Source of the DNA: a virus
Lineage: Duplodnaviria > Heunggongvirae > Uroviricota > Caudoviricetes
Length of the DNA stretch: 19,839 bases
Strand: one strand, 5' to 3'
Virus record (IMG/VR): IMGVR_UViG_2778261687_000006
Coordinates: 1 to 19,839 of that record
In this document: in pieces, positions 5,162-19,839 of the stretch
Layout of the letters: each line of letters begins with the position of its first letter
How positions within the stretch are numbered: the first letter of the stretch is position 1
The notes under the pieces: generated by a model
Database searches by the model: none
What the model was told of the DNA's origin: nothing
Seen by the model: the letters and a program-made list of their open reading frames with translations, nothing else
Program-made: the position numbers and the translations under genes

Positions 5162-5422
5162 ATGGTTGATCTTTTTTTTGTGTCAGCACAAAATAACCGT
5201 AATCCCAATACCAATAACAGGGCTTACCATGGAAATCATTACACGTATTTCGCTGTGATGCTCGCCACCGGAGAGATGGAACTGCACGAAGTGAAAGGTT
5301 TCTGGACCGACGACGCCAGGGTGAAAACCAAAGTCGCCGCAGATCAGTATCCGTTCCGAATCATCGGGGTAACGGTTAAACCAAAGAAAGCAGGTGGTGG
5401 CTGGAACATCGAAGAGTTCTGA
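5162..5422 (+). CDS. Hypothetical small protein; start codon uncertain (ATG 5162, or internal ATGs giving about 48-55 aa)
   Basis: ORF track entry; the first ATG lies inside the conserved ATATGGTT box and lacks an RBS. Coding status doubtful. Confidence 0.3.
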   Translation: MVDLFFVSAQNNRNPNTNNRAYHGNHYTYFAVMLATGEMELHEVKGFWTDDARVKTKVAADQYPFRIIGVTVKPKKAGGGWNIEEF

Positions 5423-6197: not shown

Positions 6198-6613
6198 GCG
6201 AAATTAATTACCAGGCACTGCGTGAGGCGGCGGAACGTGCAATTCCAGCAATGGAACGCCTGTTAATGTTGCCAGCTGATGATGATTTGTTAAGTGAACA
6301 GGAACTTAAAGATTACGGTGTGGATATTGATGCGCTCAACGCCTTCAAATTTCTGGCCGGACCAGAAACCGTGCTGGCACTACTGGATGAACGGGAAAGG
6401 AACCAGCAATACATCAAATCCCGCGATCAGGAGAACGAGGATATTGCGCTAACGGTTGGGAGGCTGCTAATCGAAAACGGCCGGCTTGTTGCCGATACGC
6501 TACGCCACTTAGCTGATAACGAAATCGACTCTGATTATTTTGCTATCACCTCAACGAATGAGAACGGTACTGAAATTGATCATGAGATGGCTATTACTGA
6601 GCCGCCAGGATGA
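6194..6613 (+). CDS. Ead/Ea22-like family phage protein (recollection-based assignment)
   Basis: 139 aa; GTG start with strong RBS AAGGAGG 6 nt upstream; N-terminus MSEINYQALREAAERA and VLALLDERERNQQ resemble lambdoid Ea22-like proteins as I remember them. Confidence 0.55.
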   Translation: MSEINYQALREAAERAIPAMERLLMLPADDDLLSEQELKDYGVDIDALNAFKFLAGPETVLALLDERERNQQYIKSRDQENEDIALTVGRLLIENGRLVADTLRHLADNEIDSDYFAITSTNENGTEIDHEMAITEPPG

Positions 6614-6761
6614 TGCACGTGTGCGCTGGCGTATAAAATCGATCAGCAGAAAACGGTGCGGTAAGTGCGGCGAGAGAGTTCCTGTTAATTCATGCCCGTG
6701 TAATGGTGACTCGCAATGCTGGGTGAATAAAGGCTGGCATGAAACGAAATTAATAGTGTGA
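6540..6761 (+). CDS. Possible small Cys-rich (zinc-ribbon-like) protein; coding status uncertain
   Basis: ORF overlaps the 3' end of the previous gene in another frame; C-terminal CGKCGERVPVNSCPCNGDSQCW has CxxC ... CxC spacing. Its stop codon lies inside the GTGACATGTCAC palindrome. Confidence 0.25.
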   Translation: MLSPQRMRTVLKLIMRWLLLSRQDDARVRWRIKSISRKRCGKCGERVPVNSCPCNGDSQCWVNKGWHETKLIV

Positions 6762-6769
6762 CATGTCAC
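6758..6769. repeat. Perfect 12-bp palindrome GTGACATGTCAC, copy 1
   Basis: Read directly; overlaps the stop codon of the 6540..6761 ORF, upstream of the terS terminator. Confidence 0.9.
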
Positions 6770-6810
6770 GAGTAGATTATGCATGATGAATTTGATGGGT
6801 TTTGAATACT

Positions 6811-6837
6811 GCCGCCAACTATGGCGGCTTTATTTTG
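6811..6837 (+). terminator. Terminator-like hairpin upstream of terS
   Basis: GCCGCC-aactat-GGCGGC followed by TTTATTTTG; same stem sequence as the 4061-4086 terminator. Confidence 0.5.
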
Positions 6838-6843
6838 CATGGT

Positions 6844-6872
6844 ACTATTACCACAACGGTAACTATTACCAC
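6844..6872 (+). repeat. Tandem direct repeat ACTATTACCAC (6844-6854 and 6862-6872) immediately upstream of terS
   Basis: GGTACTATTACCACAACGGTAACTATTACCACGG read directly; includes an inverted GGTAA-cta-TTACC arrangement. Confidence 0.8.
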
Positions 6873-6879
6873 GGTGGTT

Positions 6880-7476
6880 ATGATGCCTGCTGAACCTAAA
6901 ACCTATAAACGCAAATCAACGCAATTTAAGCCACTAACAGCAATGCAGGAGGCTTATTGCCAGTCATACATCAAAACGCCTGAAAACCAGACTCAGGCAG
7001 CGATTAACGCAGGATTTTCCCCAAATACAGCGGCAGTTAAAGCCAGTGTCATGATGCGCGATGAACGCATTCAAAAACGGATTGCCGAGTTGATGGAGGA
7101 GCGCAACAAACGAATGCGCGTCAGTGCTGATTACGTTCTCATGCGCCTGGTGGAGATCGACCAGATGGACGTGATTGATATCCTCAACGACGATGGGAGC
7201 CTTAAGCCAATCCGCGAGTGGCCGAAAATCTGGCGCACTACGCTTAGTGGCTTTGATCTGTCGTCGACCATCATGAACATGAACGAGGATTCGATAGAGA
7301 CAATCCTCAAAAAAATTAAATGGCCTGACAAGGTGAAGAACCTTGAGCTGATTGGTAAGCATGTTGATGTCAACGCGTTCAAAGAACGTCTGGATGTTAA
7401 TGTGAATGTGACAATTGCTGATCGCATAGCAGCAGCCAGGAAGCGACTCAAAGAACGTCAGGATGGTAATCAGTGA
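6880..7476 (+). CDS. Terminase small subunit (TerS)
   Basis: About 198 aa from the ATGATG at 6880; positioned immediately upstream of and overlapping the large terminase gene; basic helical N-terminal region (TAVKASVMMRDERIQKRIAEL) consistent with a DNA-binding small terminase. The track's TTG-start extension translates a direct-repeat region. Confidence 0.65.
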   Translation: MMPAEPKTYKRKSTQFKPLTAMQEAYCQSYIKTPENQTQAAINAGFSPNTAAVKASVMMRDERIQKRIAELMEERNKRMRVSADYVLMRLVEIDQMDVIDILNDDGSLKPIREWPKIWRTTLSGFDLSSTIMNMNEDSIETILKKIKWPDKVKNLELIGKHVDVNAFKERLDVNVNVTIADRIAAARKRLKERQDGNQ

Positions 7477-8948
7477 CAGATACAGCGTTATCTCCTGAAG
7501 AGCAGTTGATCGAGGATATTGCAGGGTTCACTCACGATCCGCTTGGCTATGCCCTCTATGCGTTCCCGTGGGGGGAAGAGGGGACTGAACTGGCACATGC
7601 TACCGGTCCACGTCAGTGGCAGGCTGATGCGTTCCGAGAGATACGTGATCACCTGCAGAATCCAGAGACGCGCTATCAGCCGCTTATGCTGGCACGTGCT
7701 TCTGGTCACGGTATTGGTAAATCCGCATTCATCTCAATGCTGATCAACTGGGGCATGTCCACTTGCGAGGATTGTAAGGTCGTGGTGACCGCCAATACCG
7801 ACAACCAGCTACGAACGAAGACCTGGCCGGAAATTATCAAGTGGTCGAACCTTGCTATCACGAAAGACTGGTTCACCTGTACCGCTACCGCGATGTACAG
7901 CAATGATCCTGGGCACGACAAGCGGTGGCGAGCTGACGCAATCCCCTGGTCTGAGCACAATACTGAGGCGTTCGCCGGACTACACAACGAGCGCAAACGT
8001 ATCATCGTGGTATTCGATGAAGCGTCGAACATTGCGGATCTGGTGTGGGAAGTTGCCGAGGGTGCGCTTACGGACGAAGACACTGAGATTATCTGGGTGG
8101 CGTTCGGAAACCCGACGCGTAATACCGGACGTTTCCGAGAATGTTTCCGCAAATATAAACACCGCTGGAAAACTGCGCAGATTGACAGCCGGACGGTTGA
8201 AGGCACTAACAAACAGCAGTTGCAGAAATGGGTTGATGACTACGGGGAAGACAGCGACTTCGTTAAAATCCGTGTGCGTGGCATATTCCCTGATGCATCT
8301 GAATTGCAGTTTATCCCTACCGGTCTTACTGACGAGGCAATGAAACGGGTGGTAACCGCTGCGCAGGTGGCACATGCTCCGGTGATAATCGGCGTTGACC
8401 CGGCATACTCCGGCGTTGATGACGCGGTGATATACCTGCGGCAGGGGCTGCACAGTAAGGTGCTGTGGACTGGCAACAAGACCACCGACGATCTGATTAT
8501 GGCGAAGCGTATCGCTGACTTTGAAGACCAGTATCAGGCCGACGCGGTGTTCATCGACTTCGGTTACGGTACTGGCCTGAAGTCAATCGGTGACGACTGG
8601 GGGCGCACATGGCAACTTGTTCCGTTCGGTGGCGCGTCTACTGACCCGCAGATGCTCAACAAGCGTGGGGAGATGTTCAACTCATGTAAGACATGGCTGA
8701 GGCTGGGCGGGATGCTGGATGACCAGGAAACAGCGGACGACCTGTCGACGGCAGAGTACAAAGTTCGCGTGGACGGTAAAATCGTTATCGAACCGAAGGA
8801 AGATATCAAAGAGCGACTTGGGCGTTCGCCGGGGAAAGGCGATGCGCTATTGCTGACGTTTGCTTTCCCTGTGTCGAAGCGCCTGCGAATTCCCGGTCAG
8901 CAGAACCAGCAAGGCAAGGCCATCACAGATTACGACCCGTTTGCGTGA
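7473..8948 (+). CDS. Terminase large subunit (TerL), ATPase plus nuclease
   Basis: 491 aa; Walker A-like ASGHGIGKSAF, Walker B-like RIIVVFDEASN, C-terminal acidic nuclease-like motif VIIGVDPAYSG. GTG start overlaps the terS stop (GTGA). Confidence 0.85.
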   Translation: MTDTALSPEEQLIEDIAGFTHDPLGYALYAFPWGEEGTELAHATGPRQWQADAFREIRDHLQNPETRYQPLMLARASGHGIGKSAFISMLINWGMSTCEDCKVVVTANTDNQLRTKTWPEIIKWSNLAITKDWFTCTATAMYSNDPGHDKRWRADAIPWSEHNTEAFAGLHNERKRIIVVFDEASNIADLVWEVAEGALTDEDTEIIWVAFGNPTRNTGRFRECFRKYKHRWKTAQIDSRTVEGTNKQQLQKWVDDYGEDSDFVKIRVRGIFPDASELQFIPTGLTDEAMKRVVTAAQVAHAPVIIGVDPAYSGVDDAVIYLRQGLHSKVLWTGNKTTDDLIMAKRIADFEDQYQADAVFIDFGYGTGLKSIGDDWGRTWQLVPFGGASTDPQMLNKRGEMFNSCKTWLRLGGMLDDQETADDLSTAEYKVRVDGKIVIEPKEDIKERLGRSPGKGDALLLTFAFPVSKRLRIPGQQNQQGKAITDYDPFA

Positions 8949-8949
8949 T

Positions 8950-9690
8950 TTATTGCTTATTTTTCACGGCTTCAGCAATCATTCTCTCAGCCTGTGATGT
9001 ATATGTTTTTCGCAAGGGTTCATGGCCCATATGCAATACGATACCTTCCTTTTCTTTTTCCTTTAATTCTTGTATGAGATTATTTATTTTGGCCTCCCTA
9101 TCTTCAAGCATTCTGGCGGACTTTTCTGCCTCAATCTTTAACGCTGCAGCCACTGATTGCATGTTTTCCAGCTTCTTATTCAATTCCAAAACCTTATCGG
9201 AGAGCCTATCTCTTTCCGCCGTTAGCTCACCCATCCTGGCCTGTGACTCCGTAATTCTTTCCTTCATAGCCTGTATGTCTTTTTCGGCGCCAGTCTTAAC
9301 TTTGTCGTATGTCACATCGTGCTTTGCCTTCAGGCGCTGCAGGCGTGTGGCGCGATGAATGCGCTTGGCCTTCCGGTGGTTCTCTATCGAATCGTAATTA
9401 TCAAGAGGTTTGGCTTGCCACTTTGAAATCACGTTGTTGATCCAGGGCATGCCGCCGCACAGGATTATTGCTGAAACACATGGGAATGCTAATACCGTTT
9501 TCCAACTGCTATTACTGGAAATGTAGGTGATCTTGTCGATGATGCTGGAGTCGCTGAGGAGTAAGTATAAAATCGACTTCCAGTTAAAGGCGCACCATGA
9601 CAGTGCGAACGCTCCAAACACTGGATTTCTGACCCTTTGCGCAGCGGTATTAACGGTTGAAGATAGGTATTCTTTAAGTGATTCAAGCAT
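8950..9690 (-). CDS. AT-rich cargo gene: membrane-anchored coiled-coil protein of unknown function (candidate superinfection-exclusion or abortive-infection factor)
   Basis: 246 aa; two hydrophobic segments near the N-terminus, then a long charged heptad-like region (KERITESQARMGELTAERDRLSDKVLELNKKLENMQ). AAGGG RBS. Convergent with terL with a 1-nt gap. Visibly AT-rich compared with neighbours. Confidence 0.55.
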   Translation of the reverse strand: MLESLKEYLSSTVNTAAQRVRNPVFGAFALSWCAFNWKSILYLLLSDSSIIDKITYISSNSSWKTVLAFPCVSAIILCGGMPWINNVISKWQAKPLDNYDSIENHRKAKRIHRATRLQRLKAKHDVTYDKVKTGAEKDIQAMKERITESQARMGELTAERDRLSDKVLELNKKLENMQSVAAALKIEAEKSARMLEDREAKINNLIQELKEKEKEGIVLHMGHEPLRKTYTSQAERMIAEAVKNKQ

Positions 9691-9720
9691 GTCCAGGCCC
9701 TTTTAGGTTTTTTTCTGATT

Positions 9721-9735
9721 CTACCTTTAAGGTAA
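9721..9735. promoter_or_regulatory. Dyad operator-like site CTACCTTTAAGGTAA in the promoter of the 8950..9690 gene
   Basis: Lies in the spacer of a candidate minus-strand promoter (ATGACC ... TAGAAT) about 40 bp upstream of the start codon. Confidence 0.45.
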
Positions 9736-9757
9736 TCTTCGGTCATTATGAAAAACG

Positions 9758-9803
9758 TATCCCTATGAGGGGATAATGTCGTTGATATCCTCTGATGAGG
9801 ATA
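9758..9803. promoter_or_regulatory. Two tandem dyads of a second type, TATCC-N8-GGATA (9758-9775 and 9786-9803)
   Basis: TATCCctatgaggGGATA and TATCCtctgatgaGGATA, 28 bp apart, upstream of the 8950..9690 promoter. Confidence 0.4.
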
Positions 9804-9829
9804 AAACAAAGCCAGCTCATCGGCTGGCT
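9801..9829 (-). terminator. Rho-independent terminator after the 9850..10221 gene
   Basis: On the minus strand: AGCCAGC-cgatgag-GCTGGCT hairpin followed by TTGTTTTAT, about 20 nt past the stop codon. Confidence 0.5.
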
Positions 9830-9833
9830 GTTT

Positions 9834-9845
9834 GTGACATGTCAC
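9834..9845. repeat. Perfect 12-bp palindrome GTGACATGTCAC, copy 2
   Basis: Read directly; 5 nt beyond the stop of the 9850..10221 gene, before its terminator hairpin. Confidence 0.9.
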
Positions 9846-9849
9846 GGTG

Positions 9850-10221
9850 TTATTGCTCGCTTAACTTCTGCTTCAGCAAGTAACCTTCAAGCATCCAGAT
9901 TTTGTTTACAGCATTCTGCCGGGCAATCTTCCGACCAATTTCCGCATCAAAGTTTTCCGGGCTTGCACAGGCGCTCTCTCCGGTGACGGTGAAGCCGTTG
10001 CGCAGCACCAGAACGCAGAACGTCAGCAGAGAAAGTGATTCGTGCGGCTGGTAGTTTACCTCTCCGCCAGTATGTTTCGCTTTTATGGCTACGCCAAAGA
10101 CACCATCTTCTGCTGTGAAATATGCCTCCTGAGCAATAATGCTCTCGATATGGTCTGGCGTAACGCGCGGCGCGGCTAAACCTTTAGCCTGAATTTCAGA
10201 TTCAATGTCTTTGTCACTCAT
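9850..10221 (-). CDS. Conserved hypothetical phage protein (123 aa)
   Basis: ORF with RBS AAGGTGA; sequence feels familiar from enterobacterial prophages but I cannot name the family with confidence. Confidence 0.55.
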   Translation of the reverse strand: MSDKDIESEIQAKGLAAPRVTPDHIESIIAQEAYFTAEDGVFGVAIKAKHTGGEVNYQPHESLSLLTFCVLVLRNGFTVTGESACASPENFDAEIGRKIARQNAVNKIWMLEGYLLKQKLSEQ

Positions 10222-10424
10222 AGTCTAATCTCACCTTAAAAAAATGCCCGGCGAACCGGGCGAACTGGAAGCAATGAGTTATGCCTTCCGTGGCTGTACT
10301 GGTTTACAGCATGAAGTCATCGCAATGGCGTCCTGCTGTAAAAAGGGCGGTGATAGTCCTTCAAGGGAAACCATCACCGCCAAGCCCCTGGAACTTCTGG
10401 CATCACGGTCCTTAGGCGTGATTC

Positions 10425-10501
10425 TGGCGTGGCATGCAGGATTCGAACCTGCGACCAACCGCTTAGAAGGCGGTTGCTCTGTCCAACTGAGCTAATGCCA
10501 C
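10425..10501 (-). tRNA. tRNA-Arg (anticodon UCU), phage-encoded
   Basis: Hand-folded cloverleaf on the minus strand: acceptor GTGGCAT/ATGCCAC, D-arm GCTC-AGTTGGACA-GAGC, anticodon arm ACCGC-CTTCTAA-GCGGT (U33, anticodon TCT, A37), variable loop TGGTC, T-arm GCAGG-TTCGAAT-CCTGC, discriminator G, encoded CCA. Acceptor and anticodon stems differ from host argU as I recall it. Confidence 0.85.
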
Positions 10502-10823
10502 AACGCTGAGAGCACTTAGCCTGTTAAGGCGCCACACTTTGTCGCGGCTCCATAAATGCTCTCATCGTTGCACCCTCGTCTCTTCCGAGGCGTCACACCG
10601 AATCGCCGGGATGGTGAATCCCCGTGCGCGGAATAAAACCGCTCGACTTGCACATTCCGGCTACCTGGTTCGTTTGCCCGAGCAAGGGAGGGTGCCCCTT
10701 AAACGTATCCAGACCGCTATCGTCGCATGTGCCATACGCCGTACTGCTCAACATAAAAGCTCACTCCACCTGTTCAATTTAACGACAAGCCAGTCAGGTT
10801 AGTAACCGGAATGAACTCTTTTG

Positions 10824-10838
10824 TTACCTGAAAGGTAA
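10824..10838. promoter_or_regulatory. Dyad operator-like site TTACCTGAAAGGTAA
   Basis: Lies beside a minus-strand TTGACA (10855-10860) and about 70 bp upstream of a -10-like GATAAT (10899-10904) for the plus-strand operon. Confidence 0.45.
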
Positions 10839-10928
10839 TAATTTGCGCATTAAATGTCAACTGTCTACGACAAGTAAATCATATGTGGTTAAATTGGTGA
10901 TAATTTAATTGCGTACGGAGTCATTGAT

Positions 10929-11186
10929 ATGTGCATGGGTAGCTCACCATCAGTGCCTGCAACACCAGAAGTTCAGGCAGCACCACAGGAGCAGGATGCC
11001 GCCGTTGTTGATGCCCGCGACGAAGAAACTCGTCGCCGTCGCGCTGCTGCTGGTCGTAGTTCTACGCTGCTTGAGGCGGTGCAGAACCGCATGAACGATA
11101 TGTTCAATAAGTCGAATCTCTACCAGTCGCTGCCGGTGTTCAGCGGTATCTGCGTGTTAACTACTCCGTCGCAACTGGCCCACTAA
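10929..11186 (+). CDS. Hypothetical protein (85 aa); may be part of a frame-disrupted larger gene
   Basis: RBS GGAG 8 nt upstream of the ATG. A second frame stays open from 11111 to 11267 without any start codon and translates to protein-like sequence. Confidence 0.4.
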   Translation: MCMGSSPSVPATPEVQAAPQEQDAAVVDARDEETRRRRAAAGRSSTLLEAVQNRMNDMFNKSNLYQSLPVFSGICVLTTPSQLAH

Positions 11187-11279
11187 CGGCTGGCGAATTC
11201 ACTGCTGGTATCAGTCTTGATGTTGATGCCAATACGCCGTATCCGATCCGCTCAAAAGTAACTGGTTAAGGTGATATCG

Positions 11280-11630
11280 ATGTCAGGTGAGAAACCAAGA
11301 TACCGCGTTCTGCGCCTCTCTCATATCCATAACACTCTGTGGCCGGAGGGGGCAGAAATCGAATACGAAGGTGAGCCTGGTAGCGCACTGGAACCTGTTA
11401 ACGATGCAGCCAGACAGGCAAAAGCAAAGGTAGCAGGAAAGGTGTCAATGGCAGCAACCAGTACCAAAATCATCAACGATGTGTCAGATGATGGTGAGCT
11501 GGATAAGCTCCGTGAAGAGTACGAATTGCTCTTTAACGAGAAGCCACACCATAACGCCAAAGCCGAAACGCTCCGCGAGAAGATCGCAGATAACCGGTTC
11601 TGGTATTCAGCGTGGAACATGGAAAGGTGA
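11280..11630 (+). CDS. Hypothetical protein (116 aa)
   Basis: ATG at 11280 with RBS GGTGA 6 nt upstream; acidic, helical-looking sequence. The +1 frame stays open across its last 150 nt. Confidence 0.5.
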   Translation: MSGEKPRYRVLRLSHIHNTLWPEGAEIEYEGEPGSALEPVNDAARQAKAKVAGKVSMAATSTKIINDVSDDGELDKLREEYELLFNEKPHHNAKAETLREKIADNRFWYSAWNMER

Positions 11631-11679
11631 ATTAACGAGAAGTGTTTTCCTGTTTAAATCGTTCCCTATCTCGGTGGTT

Positions 11680-12240
11680 ATGCGTCACTGGTCACGCGCT
11701 ATGGGTATGCCGTCTGCTGGTGGGCGTGCGGCATATATTGCGACGTTTATTGCCAGTACGACCATTCTTGGAGCTTTGTCGCAGCAACTTAACGACCTTG
11801 CGTCTGGTCGTAATCCTCGCGAGATGACAGGAGAAGATGCCGCAAAATTCTGGCTTGGTGCTCTATTGAAAGGTGGTGGTCTTGGCCTTTACGGTGACTT
11901 TTTATTGTCAGATCACACTAGGTACGGAAGCGGCGCGCTGGCGTCGATGCTTGGCCCGGTGGCTGGTCTGGTTGATGACGTAGTGAAGATTGCTCAGGGC
12001 ATACCGTTAAATGCTGTGGAAGGGAAGAGTGAGCAGACTGGTGGTGATCTGGTGAAGCTGGGGAAAGGTTTGATGCCAGGTGCGAATCTCTGGTACTTGA
12101 AGGCGGCTCTCGATCACATGATCTTTAACCAGATGCAGGAGTATTTTTCACCAGGCTATTTGCGTAAAATGGAGCAACGTTCGAAGAAAGAGTTTAACCA
12201 GACATACTGGTGGCGACCTCAGGATGTCACTCCGCAATAA
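11680..12240 (+). CDS. Hypothetical protein with Gly-rich hydrophobic segments; start poorly defined (ATG 11680 or GTG 11674), possible frameshift fusion with the upstream ORF
   Basis: Long open frame 11479..12240, protein-like only after about 11640; no well-spaced RBS at the candidate starts. Confidence 0.45.
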   Translation: MRHWSRAMGMPSAGGRAAYIATFIASTTILGALSQQLNDLASGRNPREMTGEDAAKFWLGALLKGGGLGLYGDFLLSDHTRYGSGALASMLGPVAGLVDDVVKIAQGIPLNAVEGKSEQTGGDLVKLGKGLMPGANLWYLKAALDHMIFNQMQEYFSPGYLRKMEQRSKKEFNQTYWWRPQDVTPQ

Positions 12241-12249
12241 GGATGAGAA

Positions 12250-12390
12250 ATGATTGCTTTTATTCTTGTTGTATTTGTGCTTGTTGCCCTTGGCGTTATG
12301 AATCGTAAATGTATCATTGAAGACGGTGAATTTGCTGTAGCAGTTGTTTTGATATTATCTGGTGTAGCAGGGTACATAGGTTTGTCATAG
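12250..12390 (+). CDS. Small hydrophobic peptide (46 aa, two predicted membrane segments); not in the ORF track
   Basis: Hand translation MIAFILVVFVLVALGVMNRKCIIEDGEFAVAVVLILSGVAGYIGLS; RBS AGGA upstream; stop TAG at 12388-12390. Confidence 0.35.
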   Translation: MIAFILVVFVLVALGVMNRKCIIEDGEFAVAVVLILSGVAGYIGLS

Positions 12391-12397
12391 CTTGAGT

Positions 12398-12409
12398 GTG
12401 ACATGTCAC
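12398..12409. repeat. Perfect 12-bp palindrome GTGACATGTCAC, copy 3 (extended form TGTGACATGTCACA)
   Basis: Read directly; in the convergent gap between the 12250..12390 ORF and the 12434..12691 gene. Confidence 0.9.
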
Positions 12410-12433
12410 AGGCCGCTTTCGCGGCCCTTAAAT

Positions 12434-12691
12434 TTACCGGATTTGTTTTCGTAATTGTTCGGCACAATAGTCGAGATGTGTTTGCAGATCCTGCATAGAC
12501 ATCTGTGAGCTGGTGACGTAGTTAATCAGTGCAGTCAGTTCGGCAAGTGGGCCATCGACATTAAATCCATCCTTATCGAGATCCCGGAGTAATTTCATCA
12601 AGTGCGATCCCTCCACCAGTGACCTGACGCCTCCCGGCGTGTGAATCCTTTCGGTAAATCCGTCTTCCAGTGGATAGTGATACTGCTGCAT
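12434..12691 (-). CDS. Hypothetical protein (85 aa from the ATG at 12691)
   Basis: ORF track 12434..12757 with a GTG at 12757; the internal ATG at 12689-12691 has GGAG about 8 nt upstream. Divergent from the tailspike gene. Confidence 0.45.
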   Translation of the reverse strand: MQQYHYPLEDGFTERIHTPGGVRSLVEGSHLMKLLRDLDKDGFNVDGPLAELTALINYVTSSQMSMQDLQTHLDYCAEQLRKQIR

Positions 12692-18080: not shown

Positions 18081-18574
18081 TCTGGGCATTCGCAAAAGCA
18101 TACAGGAAACAGTTGGTTATCATGGTGATGCTTGCTGTTCTGGTCATATCAGGAGTTGTAGCTTGGAATGCACACGGCAGTCGTCAGTACGACGCCGGGT
18201 ATGCGCAGGCACAGGAAGATCAGAAACAGGCTAATGATAAGGCCAGGTCACAACGTGATCAGGAGAAAACACAAATTGAACGTGAAGCACAATCCCGTAT
18301 CGATGTGGCGCGTGTTGATGCTGAGCATGCTAATGCCGCTGCTGACAGCCTGCGCGCCGAGCTTGACAAAACCAAGCGACTCGCCGAACACTATACCGGA
18401 TCTTTCCCCACTGGCACGCCAGCCAGCAAGGTCATCGGTGTGCTCGCCGACATGCTTGAAGAAAGCAATCGAGTTTACAACGCAACAGCAGCTGAGGCTG
18501 AAAAGTATCGGATTGCAGGAGAATCCTGCGAACAGCAATACGATTCACTGAAGAAGCAAAAATCGTGGTACTGA
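18077..18574 (+). CDS. Rz-like i-spanin
   Basis: 165 aa; N-terminal TM ([18 protein letters not shown]) followed by a charged coiled-coil periplasmic domain; start overlaps the endolysin stop (ATGA). Confidence 0.7.
18303..18551 (+). CDS. Rz1-like o-spanin lipoprotein, embedded in the +1 frame of the Rz gene
   Basis: Embedded ORF with signal [17 protein letters not shown] (lipobox LTAC) and a Pro-rich mature region ([25 protein letters not shown]). Start codon choice uncertain (18303, 18318 or 18333). Confidence 0.5.
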   Translation: MWRVLMLSMLMPLLTACAPSLTKPSDSPNTIPDLSPLARQPARSSVCSPTCLKKAIEFTTQQQLRLKSIGLQENPANSNTIH

Positions 18575-18704
18575 TTTCCGGTGACGGTATATAAAACGGT
18601 ACTAGAAAAATTAAGTTTTGGAAAAATGTTATCACTCAATTGGTTATGATTGTCGTAAATAATTGAGTGGGAATGATTTGACCCTGCACTATGAATGAAC
18701 AAAA

Positions 18705-19323: not shown

Positions 19324-19839
19324 TTAGCTCTTTTCAGGACATTTGGTATTTGGCTGAATACGCGTTTCGTTATACGTCGTGGTAATAACAACGGCTAAAC
19401 CTGTCGTAAACTGGCACTCTTTACCCACCTGGGTAGAGGTATACACTTTGGTGCCTTCCTTATAGGTTAAAGAAACACCTTCCACTAAGGTTTTATCATT
19501 CACCATAGAACCCGCTGCCGCGCCTACAGCTCCGCCGCCAACTGCACCTGCCGTCGTTCCGGAATTGCTGCCAGACCCGACGTTGTGGCCGATAACACCG
19601 CCAGCGACTGCGCCAATAAGCGCGCCGAAGGCTTGTGCGTTCCGTTTATTTTGGGAGTTGTCTACGGCAACTTTTGCGGGAAGAATGGAAATAATATTAA
19701 CGGTTTTAGTTTCTTGTTTGGTATTCAGTTGATCGGTTTGATAAACATCGGCAGCATGATCGTCAGCATTTGACTGGCATCCTGCCAGAGTGAATGACGC
19801 TAACATTGCCACAGGCAGAAGACATTTTTTAAATTTCAT
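19324..19839 (-). CDS. Outer-membrane lipoprotein with glycine-zipper domain (SlyB/Pcp-like)
   Basis: 171 aa; lipobox LAGC in MKFKKCLLPVAMLASFTLAGC; Gly/Ala zipper GALIGAVAGGVIGHNVG...GAVGGGAVGAAAG. Start codon is the last three bases of the window. Confidence 0.65.
   Translation of the reverse strand: MKFKKCLLPVAMLASFTLAGCQSNADDHAADVYQTDQLNTKQETKTVNIISILPAKVAVDNSQNKRNAQAFGALIGAVAGGVIGHNVGSGSNSGTTAGAVGGGAVGAAAGSMVNDKTLVEGVSLTYKEGTKVYTSTQVGKECQFTTGLAVVITTTYNETRIQPNTKCPEKS

Follow-up and report, generated by a model that had tools for sequence, protein, structure and literature searches.

A 14-bp site, Y-GTGAC-NN-GTCAC-R, accompanies epsilon15 gp49 and phiV10 p55 (phrog_536), a small uncharacterized gene with a product of approximately 112 aa, and we put at about 0.5 the probability that this site is the cognate binding site of the gp49/p55 protein and acts as a transcription boundary element. 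The data show conservation of the site, a specific spacing of its half-sites, linkage to the gene, and a position next to terminators.

Three Palindromes at Transcription Unit Boundaries

The window, that is, the whole stretch of 19,839 nt that was analyzed, is a decayed epsilon15/phiV10-like (Uetakevirus) prophage. Exact matching identified exactly three copies of the palindrome GTGACATGTCAC, and a scan of the whole window returned no fourth copy with two or fewer mismatches. The first-pass annotation had held that three copies are more than chance would give, and this was borne out by 200 dinucleotide-preserving shuffles of the window, which contained a mean of 0.01 exact copies and in no case three. 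Outside the palindrome, a preceding T and a following R are the sole bases shared by the three copies, and there is no longer repeat. The sites and their neighbors are:

6540 to 6761, plus strand: remnant of a gp49/p55-like gene (phrog_536), C-terminal part only (end of helix B and zinc ribbon, ending ...CGKCGERVPVNSCPCNGDSQCWVNKGWHETKLIV and stop)
6758 to 6769: site 1, GTGACATGTCAC; palindrome bases 2–4 (6759–6761) are the TGA stop of the preceding open reading frame
6802 to 8948, plus strand: terminase small and large subunit genes, 97% identity to phiV10 1–2183, named after the phiV10 annotation
6811 to 6836, plus strand: intrinsic-terminator-like hairpin GCCGCCAACTATGGCGGC plus TTTATTTT, situated 41 nt past site 1 and ahead of the terminase genes
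9800 to 9829, minus strand: terminator-like hairpin AGCCAGCCGATGAGCTGGCT plus TTGTTTT, z −2.6, 5 nt past site 2 in the minus direction
9834 to 9845: site 2, GTGACATGTCAC, flanked by the plus-strand terminator that follows TerL and by the stop codon of the Phage_gp49_66 gene on the minus strand
9850 to 10221, minus strand: Phage_gp49_66 family gene (phiV10 p03-like; Pfam PF13876, E 2.4e-35)
12250 to 12390, plus strand: gene for a 46-aa membrane protein (phiV10 p21-like), TAG stop, last gene before site 3
12398 to 12409: site 3, GTGACATGTCAC, 7 nt beyond the final gene of the structural operon, with a terminator hairpin 1 nt further on
12411 to 12436, plus strand: terminator-like hairpin GGCCGCTTTCGCGGCC (hairpin 12411–12426), z −3.7, 1 nt past site 3

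All three copies are boundaries of transcription units; the first-pass annotation had placed them at boundaries between functional blocks. At each of them, the transcript passes first the stop codon, next the palindrome, and last the intrinsic terminator. Its statement that every copy directly follows a stop codon did not hold: site 1 overlaps a TGA, site 2 lies 4 nt from a minus-strand stop, and site 3 lies 7 nt past a TAG. Sites 1 and 2 bracket the terminase transcription unit. Site 2 is also 5 nt from a bidirectional terminator hairpin (9810–9829). The transcript of the minus-strand gene enters site 2 and then the terminator, and the hairpin at 9800–9829 doubles as the plus-strand terminator after TerL. 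A terminator is annotated in the epsilon15 record at the position equivalent to the hairpin at 6811–6836, and phiV10 has annotated terminators at 2238–2257 and 19505–19522, the counterparts of the hairpins at 9800–9829 and 12411–12436.

The site is found at the same three places in phiV10, epsilon15, SPN1S, and Tyrion despite diverged flanks, with site 2 at 2262, 2142, 2174, and 2702, and site 3 at 19493, 19517, 19662, and 20377, respectively. At site 1, the register nnG TGA CATGTCAC is common to epsilon15, SPN1S, Tyrion, phiV10 (with one mismatch), and most homologs. The phiV10 record opens in the middle of site 1 because it ends at the p55 stop codon; three copies, together with copies far from the terminase genes in other phages, speak against a genome end or pac site with a role in packaging. 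SPN1S and epsilon15 have a degenerate fourth copy at the end of the lysis operon that is absent from the window and phiV10. The related phage ZX5 integrates at guaA.

The open reading frame at 6540–6761 matches the phrog_536 profile at positions 59–114 only, and in an alignment with phiV10, epsilon15, and SPN1S the putative DNA-binding N-terminal part is missing. The window retains site 1 and the C-terminal 55–73 codons of the gene in the correct register, with the N-terminal half replaced; it holds a truncated version of what we take to be a phrog_536 gene-plus-site module. With the N-terminal half of the gp49-like gene gone and the prophage itself decayed, the window probably carries its three sites as orphaned relics, barring supply of the protein by a resident relative.

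Linkage of the Site to phrog_536 in Unrelated Phages

A count over 1.2 Mb surrounding phrog_536 homologs of 64 species gave 85 occurrences of GTGAC-N2-GTCAC, spread over 60 loci, where approximately one was expected; all other half-site spacings are at chance level throughout. The half-sites GTGAC and GTCAC are invariant, the center is variable and usually AT, and the information content of the aligned sites is at background outside the 14 bp. These comparative data (invariant half-sites, variable center, strict 2-bp spacing, 14-bp limit of information) favor the earlier suggestion of a binding site for a dimeric regulator. Two doubts that had been raised beforehand were not borne out: a palindrome common in the host chromosome, of which a 100-kb sample of E. 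coli K-12 contains 0 copies, and mere conserved coding sequence, for where the site is coding in relatives the protein changes (Arg/Cys) and the DNA motif is kept.

The phages that carry the gene infect Enterobacterales, Vibrio, and Aeromonas, and the link between gene and site extends to the myovirus ZF40, a P2-like phage, the N15-like phage phiKO2, and a Vibrio phage. In most cases the site and the TGA stop codon of the phrog_536 gene overlap, and some sites lie inside coding sequence, for example in a cII-like gene. Gene and site travel as one unit. The center dinucleotide is TG/CA at all three phiKO2 sites, and enteric loci mix AT with AC, AG, and CC, which is only suggestive of co-evolution of the center with the protein lineage. 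Neither the phrog_536 protein nor its site is annotated as such in the phage records examined, and a literature search for the site sequence and for the N15/phiKO2 homologs found no relevant report.

The variable center also bears on the proposal that the palindrome is a target of a nuclease or an orphan methyltransferase, to neither of which we could link it. That the site is such a target (of the restriction-modification type or homing), or else an RNA element, strikes us as most improbable. The perfect palindrome with its CATG/ACATGT core is type II-like, and these phages do encode methyltransferases, in ZF40 and one IMG/VR contig as the adjoining gene; however, the CATG-core center varies (AC, CT, GC, TG) with the outer half-sites fixed, and methyltransferases do not consistently adjoin the gene in the different phage types. 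The RNA fold of the palindrome is weak (−2.9 kcal/mol, z −0.49), and a conserved C5/G8 around a 2-nt center is not a requirement of a hairpin. We also rejected the palindrome as an intrinsic terminator on the same folding values, the real terminators being separate adjacent hairpins. The likeness to a CRP half-site pair noted in the first-pass annotation was dropped because the TGTGA-N6-TCACA spacing does not occur: the gap between TGTGA and TCACA is 4 rather than 6, the full TGTGA...TCACA is found at site 3 only, and the conserved unit is GTGAC-NN-GTCAC, whose half-sites match matS minus one central base.

Another early proposal, a module-exchange junction, stood in part: homology does often break at the palindrome, but five of the seven breakpoints between the window and phiV10 are nowhere near it. 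At site 1, 35 loci are similar to the window on the gene side only versus 10 on both sides, and at site 2 the corresponding numbers are 14 on one side only versus 7. Different accessory genes abut sites 2 and 3 from phage to phage, and one window/phiV10 breakpoint is at the outer edge of the site 3 terminator and another 65 nt from site 2. All this would fit a mainly recombinational role, as a short conserved "linker" for homologous or site-specific module swaps between phages. The same pattern is nevertheless expected at any conserved functional island in mosaic phages, and most deletion and insertion breakpoints in the window are elsewhere. Moreover, 12–14 bp falls short of the length needed for efficient homologous exchange, site-specific recombination could take no direction from a perfect palindrome, which lacks polarity, there is no recombinase that co-varies with the site, and sites within genes, such as the one in the cII-like gene, are no module junctions. 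We therefore consider a recombinational role quite unlikely.

A Candidate Binding Protein and Its Proposed Action

The phrog_536 family comprises 235 protein clusters at 50% identity. The gp49/p55 protein has a basic N-terminal helix and a C-terminal zinc ribbon, and its AF2 model, which has a pLDDT of 81.5 with Vibrio homologs added and 55 with a shallow alignment, contains a strand-helix-helix core that looks like ribbon-helix-helix. On the strength of this model, the N-terminus is probably a ribbon-helix-helix module for dimerization and DNA reading. Searches of the protein against Pfam, NCBIfam, and PDB sequences gave nothing significant, and neither did a Foldseek search of the model against the PDB.

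Binding of the gp49/p55 protein at the site, and the effect of that binding, are what we infer. A dimer on the site would be next to RNA polymerase at the terminator, directly behind it or ahead of it, and would form a boundary element, either as a roadblock or insulator or as a modulator of termination. Such boundaries would keep the early-right, terminase, and structural operons apart from one another and from the oppositely transcribed accessory genes; in Uetakeviruses, the two extra copies of the site lie where the terminase unit and the structural operon end.

A variant of regulation by this protein is Q-like late control, in which the gp49-like protein loads onto RNA polymerase at the site, the polymerase reads through the terminator, and terminase and late genes are turned on, with site 1 as the analog of a Q-binding element with its promoter. 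The synteny is lambda-like, with a regulator gene followed within a few nucleotides by the site, then 22–41 nt on by a terminator, and then by late genes; in the established Q geometry, a DNA-bound factor at a site 25–45 nt upstream of the termination point could touch the RNA exit channel. GTGACA matches the −35 hexamer at five of six positions, TAAATT follows at 17 nt in epsilon15 and SPN1S, and site 1 of the window has a 9/12 promoter-like match. This match is no better than chance, however, sites 2 and 3 have no −10 element, and several relatives have the ribosome-binding site of the next gene directly after the palindrome, which leaves no space for a promoter. At site 2 the plus strand reaches the terminator before the site, the gp49-like protein has no similarity to any Q family (no match in Pfam), and some gene-carrying phages have a Q-like gene in addition (ZF40 gp25, phiKO2 gp38). 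On balance, Q-like control appears unlikely. A promoter as such was also rejected, as a properly spaced −10 accompanies GTGACA only in some site 1 contexts and not above chance, and so was an operator of the immunity repressor: the epsilon15 record lists repressor sites of a different type, ATTACC-N5-GGTAAT, which occurs in the window at 6844–6872, and the immunity region contains no palindrome-like site.

One Base Pair from matS

The half-sites are identical to those of E. coli matS (GTGAC-RNY-GTCAC), and the palindrome equals the consensus GTGACATTGTCAC minus one central T. This raises the possibility that a host protein, with MatP as the obvious candidate or another host dimer, reads the site and that the phage borrows it for boundary formation or organization. 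The orders of the hosts of gene-carrying phages (Enterobacterales, Vibrio, and Aeromonas) overlap the range of MatP. The 13-bp motif GTGAC-[AG]-N-[TC]-GTCAC is not what the phages carry, however: the spacer is 2 bp in all sites of the window and in all 85 enriched sites, a 3-bp spacer turns up a single time in the 1.2 Mb, with TTT as its center, and the RNY form is absent. Rigid dimers rarely tolerate the loss of one base pair, and a site for a host factor would not be expected to keep a fixed position relative to the stop codon of a single phage gene in phages of unrelated types. Furthermore, prophages avoid matS according to a published analysis. A host reader of the site is thus rather improbable.

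The likeness to matS might instead lie with the phage protein itself. MatP reads matS partly through a ribbon-helix-helix, and the protein of enteric and Vibrio phages might be a MatP in miniature, with a ribbon-helix-helix and a zinc ribbon, that reads "matS-minus-one" GTGAC-NN-GTCAC sites on the phage genome. It would use them either to control termination via RNA polymerase or for the bridging of phage DNA or its protection from MukBEF or Wadjet-type SMC machines; this, too, we consider unlikely. It is very unlikely that the role is MatP-like and architectural only, with gp49/p55 looping or condensing phage DNA through bridges between the dispersed sites, or marking it for or against host SMC complexes, and having no direct role in transcription.

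Implications

Should the gp49/p55 protein bind the site as we propose, a portable gene-plus-site module would be common to podo-, myo-, P2-like, N15-like, and Vibrio phages, and would offer a cheaply testable handle on how epsilon15-like phages, whose late regulation is poorly understood, delimit their transcription units. It would also provide a natural 14-bp operator of high specificity for synthetic use. If a miniature MatP-like protein were involved, its coupling, as a factor bound to DNA, with RNA polymerase at intrinsic terminators would be a new form of site-specific termination control, and shielding from SMC complexes would parallel the role of MatP at the chromosome terminus. The near-identity to matS raises the question of whether phages stay deliberately one base pair off a host chromosome-organizing signal or exploit a related recognition chemistry.

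Comparison with Known Systems

With matS/MatP, the phage system shares the half-sites, several dispersed copies per replicon, and a ribbon-helix-helix, which in the phage protein is a feature of the model. It differs in the strict 2-bp rather than 3-bp spacer and in the location of the sites on prophages and phages of many types, without the concentration in the Ter macrodomain that is seen for matS. The phage protein of about 112 aa has a zinc ribbon and lacks the four-helix bundle of MatP, and hhalign and Smith-Waterman comparisons detected no homology between the two.

As with lambda Q, the regulator gene is the last before the late genes, and its stop codon is closely followed by the site and, a short way on, by a terminator; unlike the lambda-type Q-binding element, the phage site has no convincing overlapping promoter and has extra copies at operon ends, and the protein is dissimilar to Q. 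The stoperators of cluster A mycobacteriophages (L5, Bxb1) are asymmetric 13-bp sites, oriented with transcription, present in 20–35 copies per genome and bound by the immunity repressor, and are thought to stop elongating RNA polymerase when the phage protein is bound. Both kinds of site are short, exactly conserved, and scattered in short intergenic gaps near stop codons, whereas the phage site is a perfect palindrome in 3–4 copies (three in the window) and unlike predicted repressor operators.

Conserved boundary ("linker") sequences were reportedly proposed for lambdoid phage mosaicism by Susskind and Botstein and by Clark et al. on HK620. These are likewise short conserved sequences at gene or module borders where the homology of relatives starts or stops, whereas the phage site has the sharp information content of a protein site, strict half-site spacing, and intragenic copies. 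Finally, ribbon-helix-helix regulators such as Arc, CopG, the ParD/TacA antitoxins, and AmrZ are similarly small, with a strand-helix-helix core of the kind predicted here, and act as dimers on short symmetric sites, often with the gene beside the site; gp49/p55 differs from them in its atypical extra C-terminal Cys-rich zinc ribbon, in belonging to no Pfam family, and in having its linked sites at the 3′ ends of genes rather than at its own promoter.

Palindrome Copies at Gene Ends in a Decayed Prophage

The window is an E. coli prophage of the epsilon15/phiV10 type (Uetakevirus), decayed relative to phiV10: the replication genes, the Bro-N antirepressor gene, and nearly all genes from the portal gene through the one for the last large virion protein are absent, with short remnants of portal and p11/p12 kept. 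Among the complete E. coli genomes in the collection searched, none covers 80% or more of the window.

Decay features of the window relative to phiV10
near 5249, 8944/9769, 11072, 11135, 11596, and 12426: decay breakpoints
8945-9768: 825-bp insertion, past the large terminase stop and ahead of that gene's terminator
8950-9690, minus strand: ORF in the insertion, 246 aa, phrog_4780, coiled-coil-like

A tRNA-Arg gene (anticodon TCT; 10425-10501, minus strand) lies beneath an ORF annotated in phiV10 as hypothetical protein p04, a protein annotation that may be spurious.

The first-pass annotation had reported three exact, nonrandom copies of a 12-bp palindrome, and a scan of the whole window bears this out: GTGACATGTCAC occurs exactly three times (sites 1-3), whereas in 200 dinucleotide-preserving shuffles exact matches average 0.01 copies and no shuffle has three. 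Further copies with up to two mismatches were not found in the window. Because the flanks common to all three copies consist only of a preceding T and a following purine, the copies are not fragments of a longer repeat. They had been placed directly after stop codons; all are indeed near gene ends, but site 1 contains the stop and the other two are offset from theirs by a few nucleotides.

Palindrome copies in the window
6758-6769: site 1, containing the TGA stop (6759-6761) of the ORF at 6540-6761; terminator-like hairpin 41 nt after the site
9834-9845: site 2, 4 nt from the stop of the minus-strand gene 9850-10221; bidirectional terminator hairpin 5 nt after the site in the minus direction
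12398-12409: site 3, 7 nt past the stop of a 46-aa membrane-protein gene (12250-12390); terminator hairpin beginning 1 nt after the site

Conservation in Uetakeviruses

The palindrome is found at the same three syntenic places in all four relatives compared (phiV10, epsilon15, SPN1S, and Tyrion), which share only about 80% mutual identity in their conserved parts. Along the transcript that ends at each place the order is stop codon, palindrome, intrinsic terminator; the Uetakevirus sites adjoin terminators at the ends of transcription units. Because the phiV10 record stops with the p55 stop codon, the point at which that record opens the genome falls midway through site 1. The palindrome is not annotated as a site in the epsilon15 record or in the phiV10 record.

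Syntenic places of the palindrome
place 1: stop of the last early-right gene (epsilon15 gp49, phiV10 p55)
place 2: beside the terminator separating the large terminase gene from a variable minus-strand accessory gene
place 3: after the final gene of the structural operon and ahead of the operon's terminator

The suggestion that the palindrome marks junctions of module exchange holds in part, as a description: homology between relatives often ends at it, but most breakpoints in the window lie elsewhere, and a 12-14-bp palindrome without a matching recombinase would make a poor recombination site.

A fourth, degenerate copy lies at the end of the lysis operon, as GTGACATGTCAT in SPN1S (locus L002, 26722-26733) and GTGACATGGCAT in epsilon15 (locus L004, 26618-26629), and its decay has gone further in phiV10 and the window (18560-18580). 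In Providencia and Proteus, Uetake-like prophages carry a copy within the head operon (loci L155 17605, L164 17936, and L178 17146), where its central ATG is the start codon of the next gene.

The Site Travels with the gp49/p55-Like Gene

The gene that ends at site 1 encodes a small protein of the gp49/p55 family (phrog_536). An IMG/VR scan with a 14-mer returned at least 120 stretches, many of them Uetake-like; among the matches listed, the palindrome stands directly 3' of a gene ending ...GWHETKL.. at 42 sites with 38 distinct protein tails, nearly always with the register nnG-TGA-CATGTCAC. A number of these contigs are otherwise dissimilar to Uetakeviruses, and in them the gene adjoins integrases or methyltransferases.

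A sample anchored on the protein instead comprised homologs from 64 species genomes with 10-kb flanks (1.2 Mb in total; Citrobacter, Klebsiella, Pantoea, Xenorhabdus, Proteus, Providencia, Yersinia, Serratia, Rahnella, and others). It contains 85 occurrences of GTGAC-N2-GTCAC, in 60 of the 64 loci, against approximately 1.15 expected, and the site is at the gene end in 38 loci. Other spacings (GTGAC-Nk-GTCAC, k = 0, 1, and 3-8) gave 0-4 occurrences each in the same sequence, and the reversed arrangement of the half-sites gave 0-2. A sharply defined, spacing-specific, symmetric site thus travels with the gp49/p55-like gene.

The link holds for distant homologs in unrelated phage types as well. 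Pectobacterium myovirus ZF40 has three copies of TGTGACATGTCACA, located 3 nt after the gene, inside a cII-like gene, and inside an early-left gene; the P2-like Yersinia phage YenM56.17 has GTGACGCGTCAC across the TGA stop of the gene; N15-like phiKO2 (homolog 37% identical) has GTGACTGGTCAC across the TGA stop and two further copies that share its center; and Vibrio phage K303 (homolog 31% identical) has three sites with a 2-bp spacer, one just upstream of terS. Lambda has neither the gene nor such a site. As for the host, a 100-kb sample of E. coli K-12 contains no copy of the 12-bp version and one true 13-bp matS, the binding site of MatP (GTGACAGTGTCAC; control locus L194 22741, K-12 position 1322741, within trpE).

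Nature of the Site

A symmetrized count over 102 sites, in which the half-site columns were fixed by the search pattern and the flank and center columns were free, gives Y-GTGAC-(A/n)(T/n)-GTCAC-R, with information at background immediately outside. The central two bases are AT in 69 of 85 sites and otherwise AC, CT, GC, TG, or GG. Fixed half-sites at fixed spacing around a variable center are the hallmark of a twofold-symmetric dimer that recognizes a pair of half-sites. An earlier likening to a pair of CRP half-sites fails on the spacing. Nor is the palindrome merely conserved coding sequence: copies inside genes read (C/T)GT GAC ATG TCA C(A/G)n, and their first residue switches between Arg and Cys with the base always a pyrimidine, which argues for a constraint on the DNA rather than on the protein. 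Folded as RNA, the palindrome is weak (-2.9 kcal/mol, z -0.49); it is the adjacent terminators that form stable structures. We have high confidence that the putative site is a selected protein-binding site.

Several further placements were seen. Lambdoid prophages with a gp49-like gene carry the 12-mer in the 3' part of a cII-like gene, approximately 70 nt ahead of the stop, with Arg or Cys as the residue (ZF40, locus L189, 7622-7633; L168, L170, L181, and other loci); this is roughly where, we presume, the antisense oop RNA of lambda ends. In IMG/VR contigs L071, L109, L023, L042, L052, and L057, half-sites (TGTCACG / CGTGACA) cluster in both orientations around one full palindrome and look like iteron or operator arrays. 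In contigs L011, L016, L021, L073, L114, and L123 the palindrome coincides with the very beginning of a gene; the product starts MRDMSQVLERW... (ATGCGTGACATGTCACAG), a sequence that we take to resemble the N-terminus of a lambdoid Q-type antiterminator; this could be another regulated point or a coincidence.

The Linked Protein

The phrog_536 family, labeled "transcriptional regulator," comprises 235 clusters at 50% identity (E value of 1e-3 or less), and all database names seen for its members are "hypothetical protein." Searches for Pfam or PDB sequence matches to the family found none. Members, about 112 aa long, begin with a basic helix, continue with a segment of ribbon-helix-helix (RHH) pattern (..RKLELVLD..EMLARNCAARR...EYIALLIRQDDA..), and end in a Cys-rich, zinc-ribbon-like C-terminal tail. 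There is an NCBIfam match to the RHH protein YbfE (E value 0.05), and PF10723, presumably a member of the RHH clan, is recorded for three Vibrio homologs; Foldseek returned no match. Support for the predicted RHH fold is weak but consistent. With moderate confidence we predict that the linked phage protein is the binder of the site. The copy of the gene in the window retains only the end of helix B and what follows it, and thus lacks the putative DNA-binding part.

A Possible Role at Transcription Boundaries

A strict terminator-like hairpin lies no more than 60 nt away, and in most cases 0-6 nt away, at 55 of 207 nonredundant sites, compared with 2.3% of random positions, a count inflated by kinship of the sequences. 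A dimer of a gp49/p55-like protein would occupy the site and form a boundary element, serving as a roadblock or insulator or modulating termination. We infer such a role for the protein-site pair with low to moderate confidence.

Q-like antitermination at site 1 is a possible alternative, since regulator gene, site, terminator, and late genes follow one another as they do in lambda, but a promoter-like match at site 1 does not exceed chance level, and the scheme does not suit sites 2 and 3. The epsilon15 record has separate predicted repressor-type operators (ATTACC-N5-GGTAAT) ahead of the terminase, structural, and tail-fiber operons, and annotates a repressor-binding site at the position equivalent to two exact repeats in the window.

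Repressor-type repeats in the window
6844-6854 and 6862-6872: ACTATTACCAC (TTACC-N5-GGTAA type), immediately ahead of the small terminase gene or at its start

These operators suggest that the immunity repressor directly represses the late operons and that these have promoters of their own, which would make insulation a more natural role than antitermination. Other phages have sites within a cII-like gene and within repA, between cistrons, and upstream of terS, which indicates that the role of the protein is not confined to terminators.

Comparison with Known Systems

Neither the sequence nor its variants were found in a phage context in the literature searched, and we rate palindrome and gene together as a putative phage regulator-and-operator module of an uncharacterized family. 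The closest functional analogy is with the stoperators of cluster A mycobacteriophages, which differ from the phage site in symmetry, copy number, and binder. The nearest known sequence is matS (motif GTGAC-RNY-GTCAC), which MatP contacts through a ribbon-helix-helix: the palindrome is the E. coli matS consensus, GTGACATTGTCAC, minus one central base. Its unusual placement and this near-identity to matS make the module notable.
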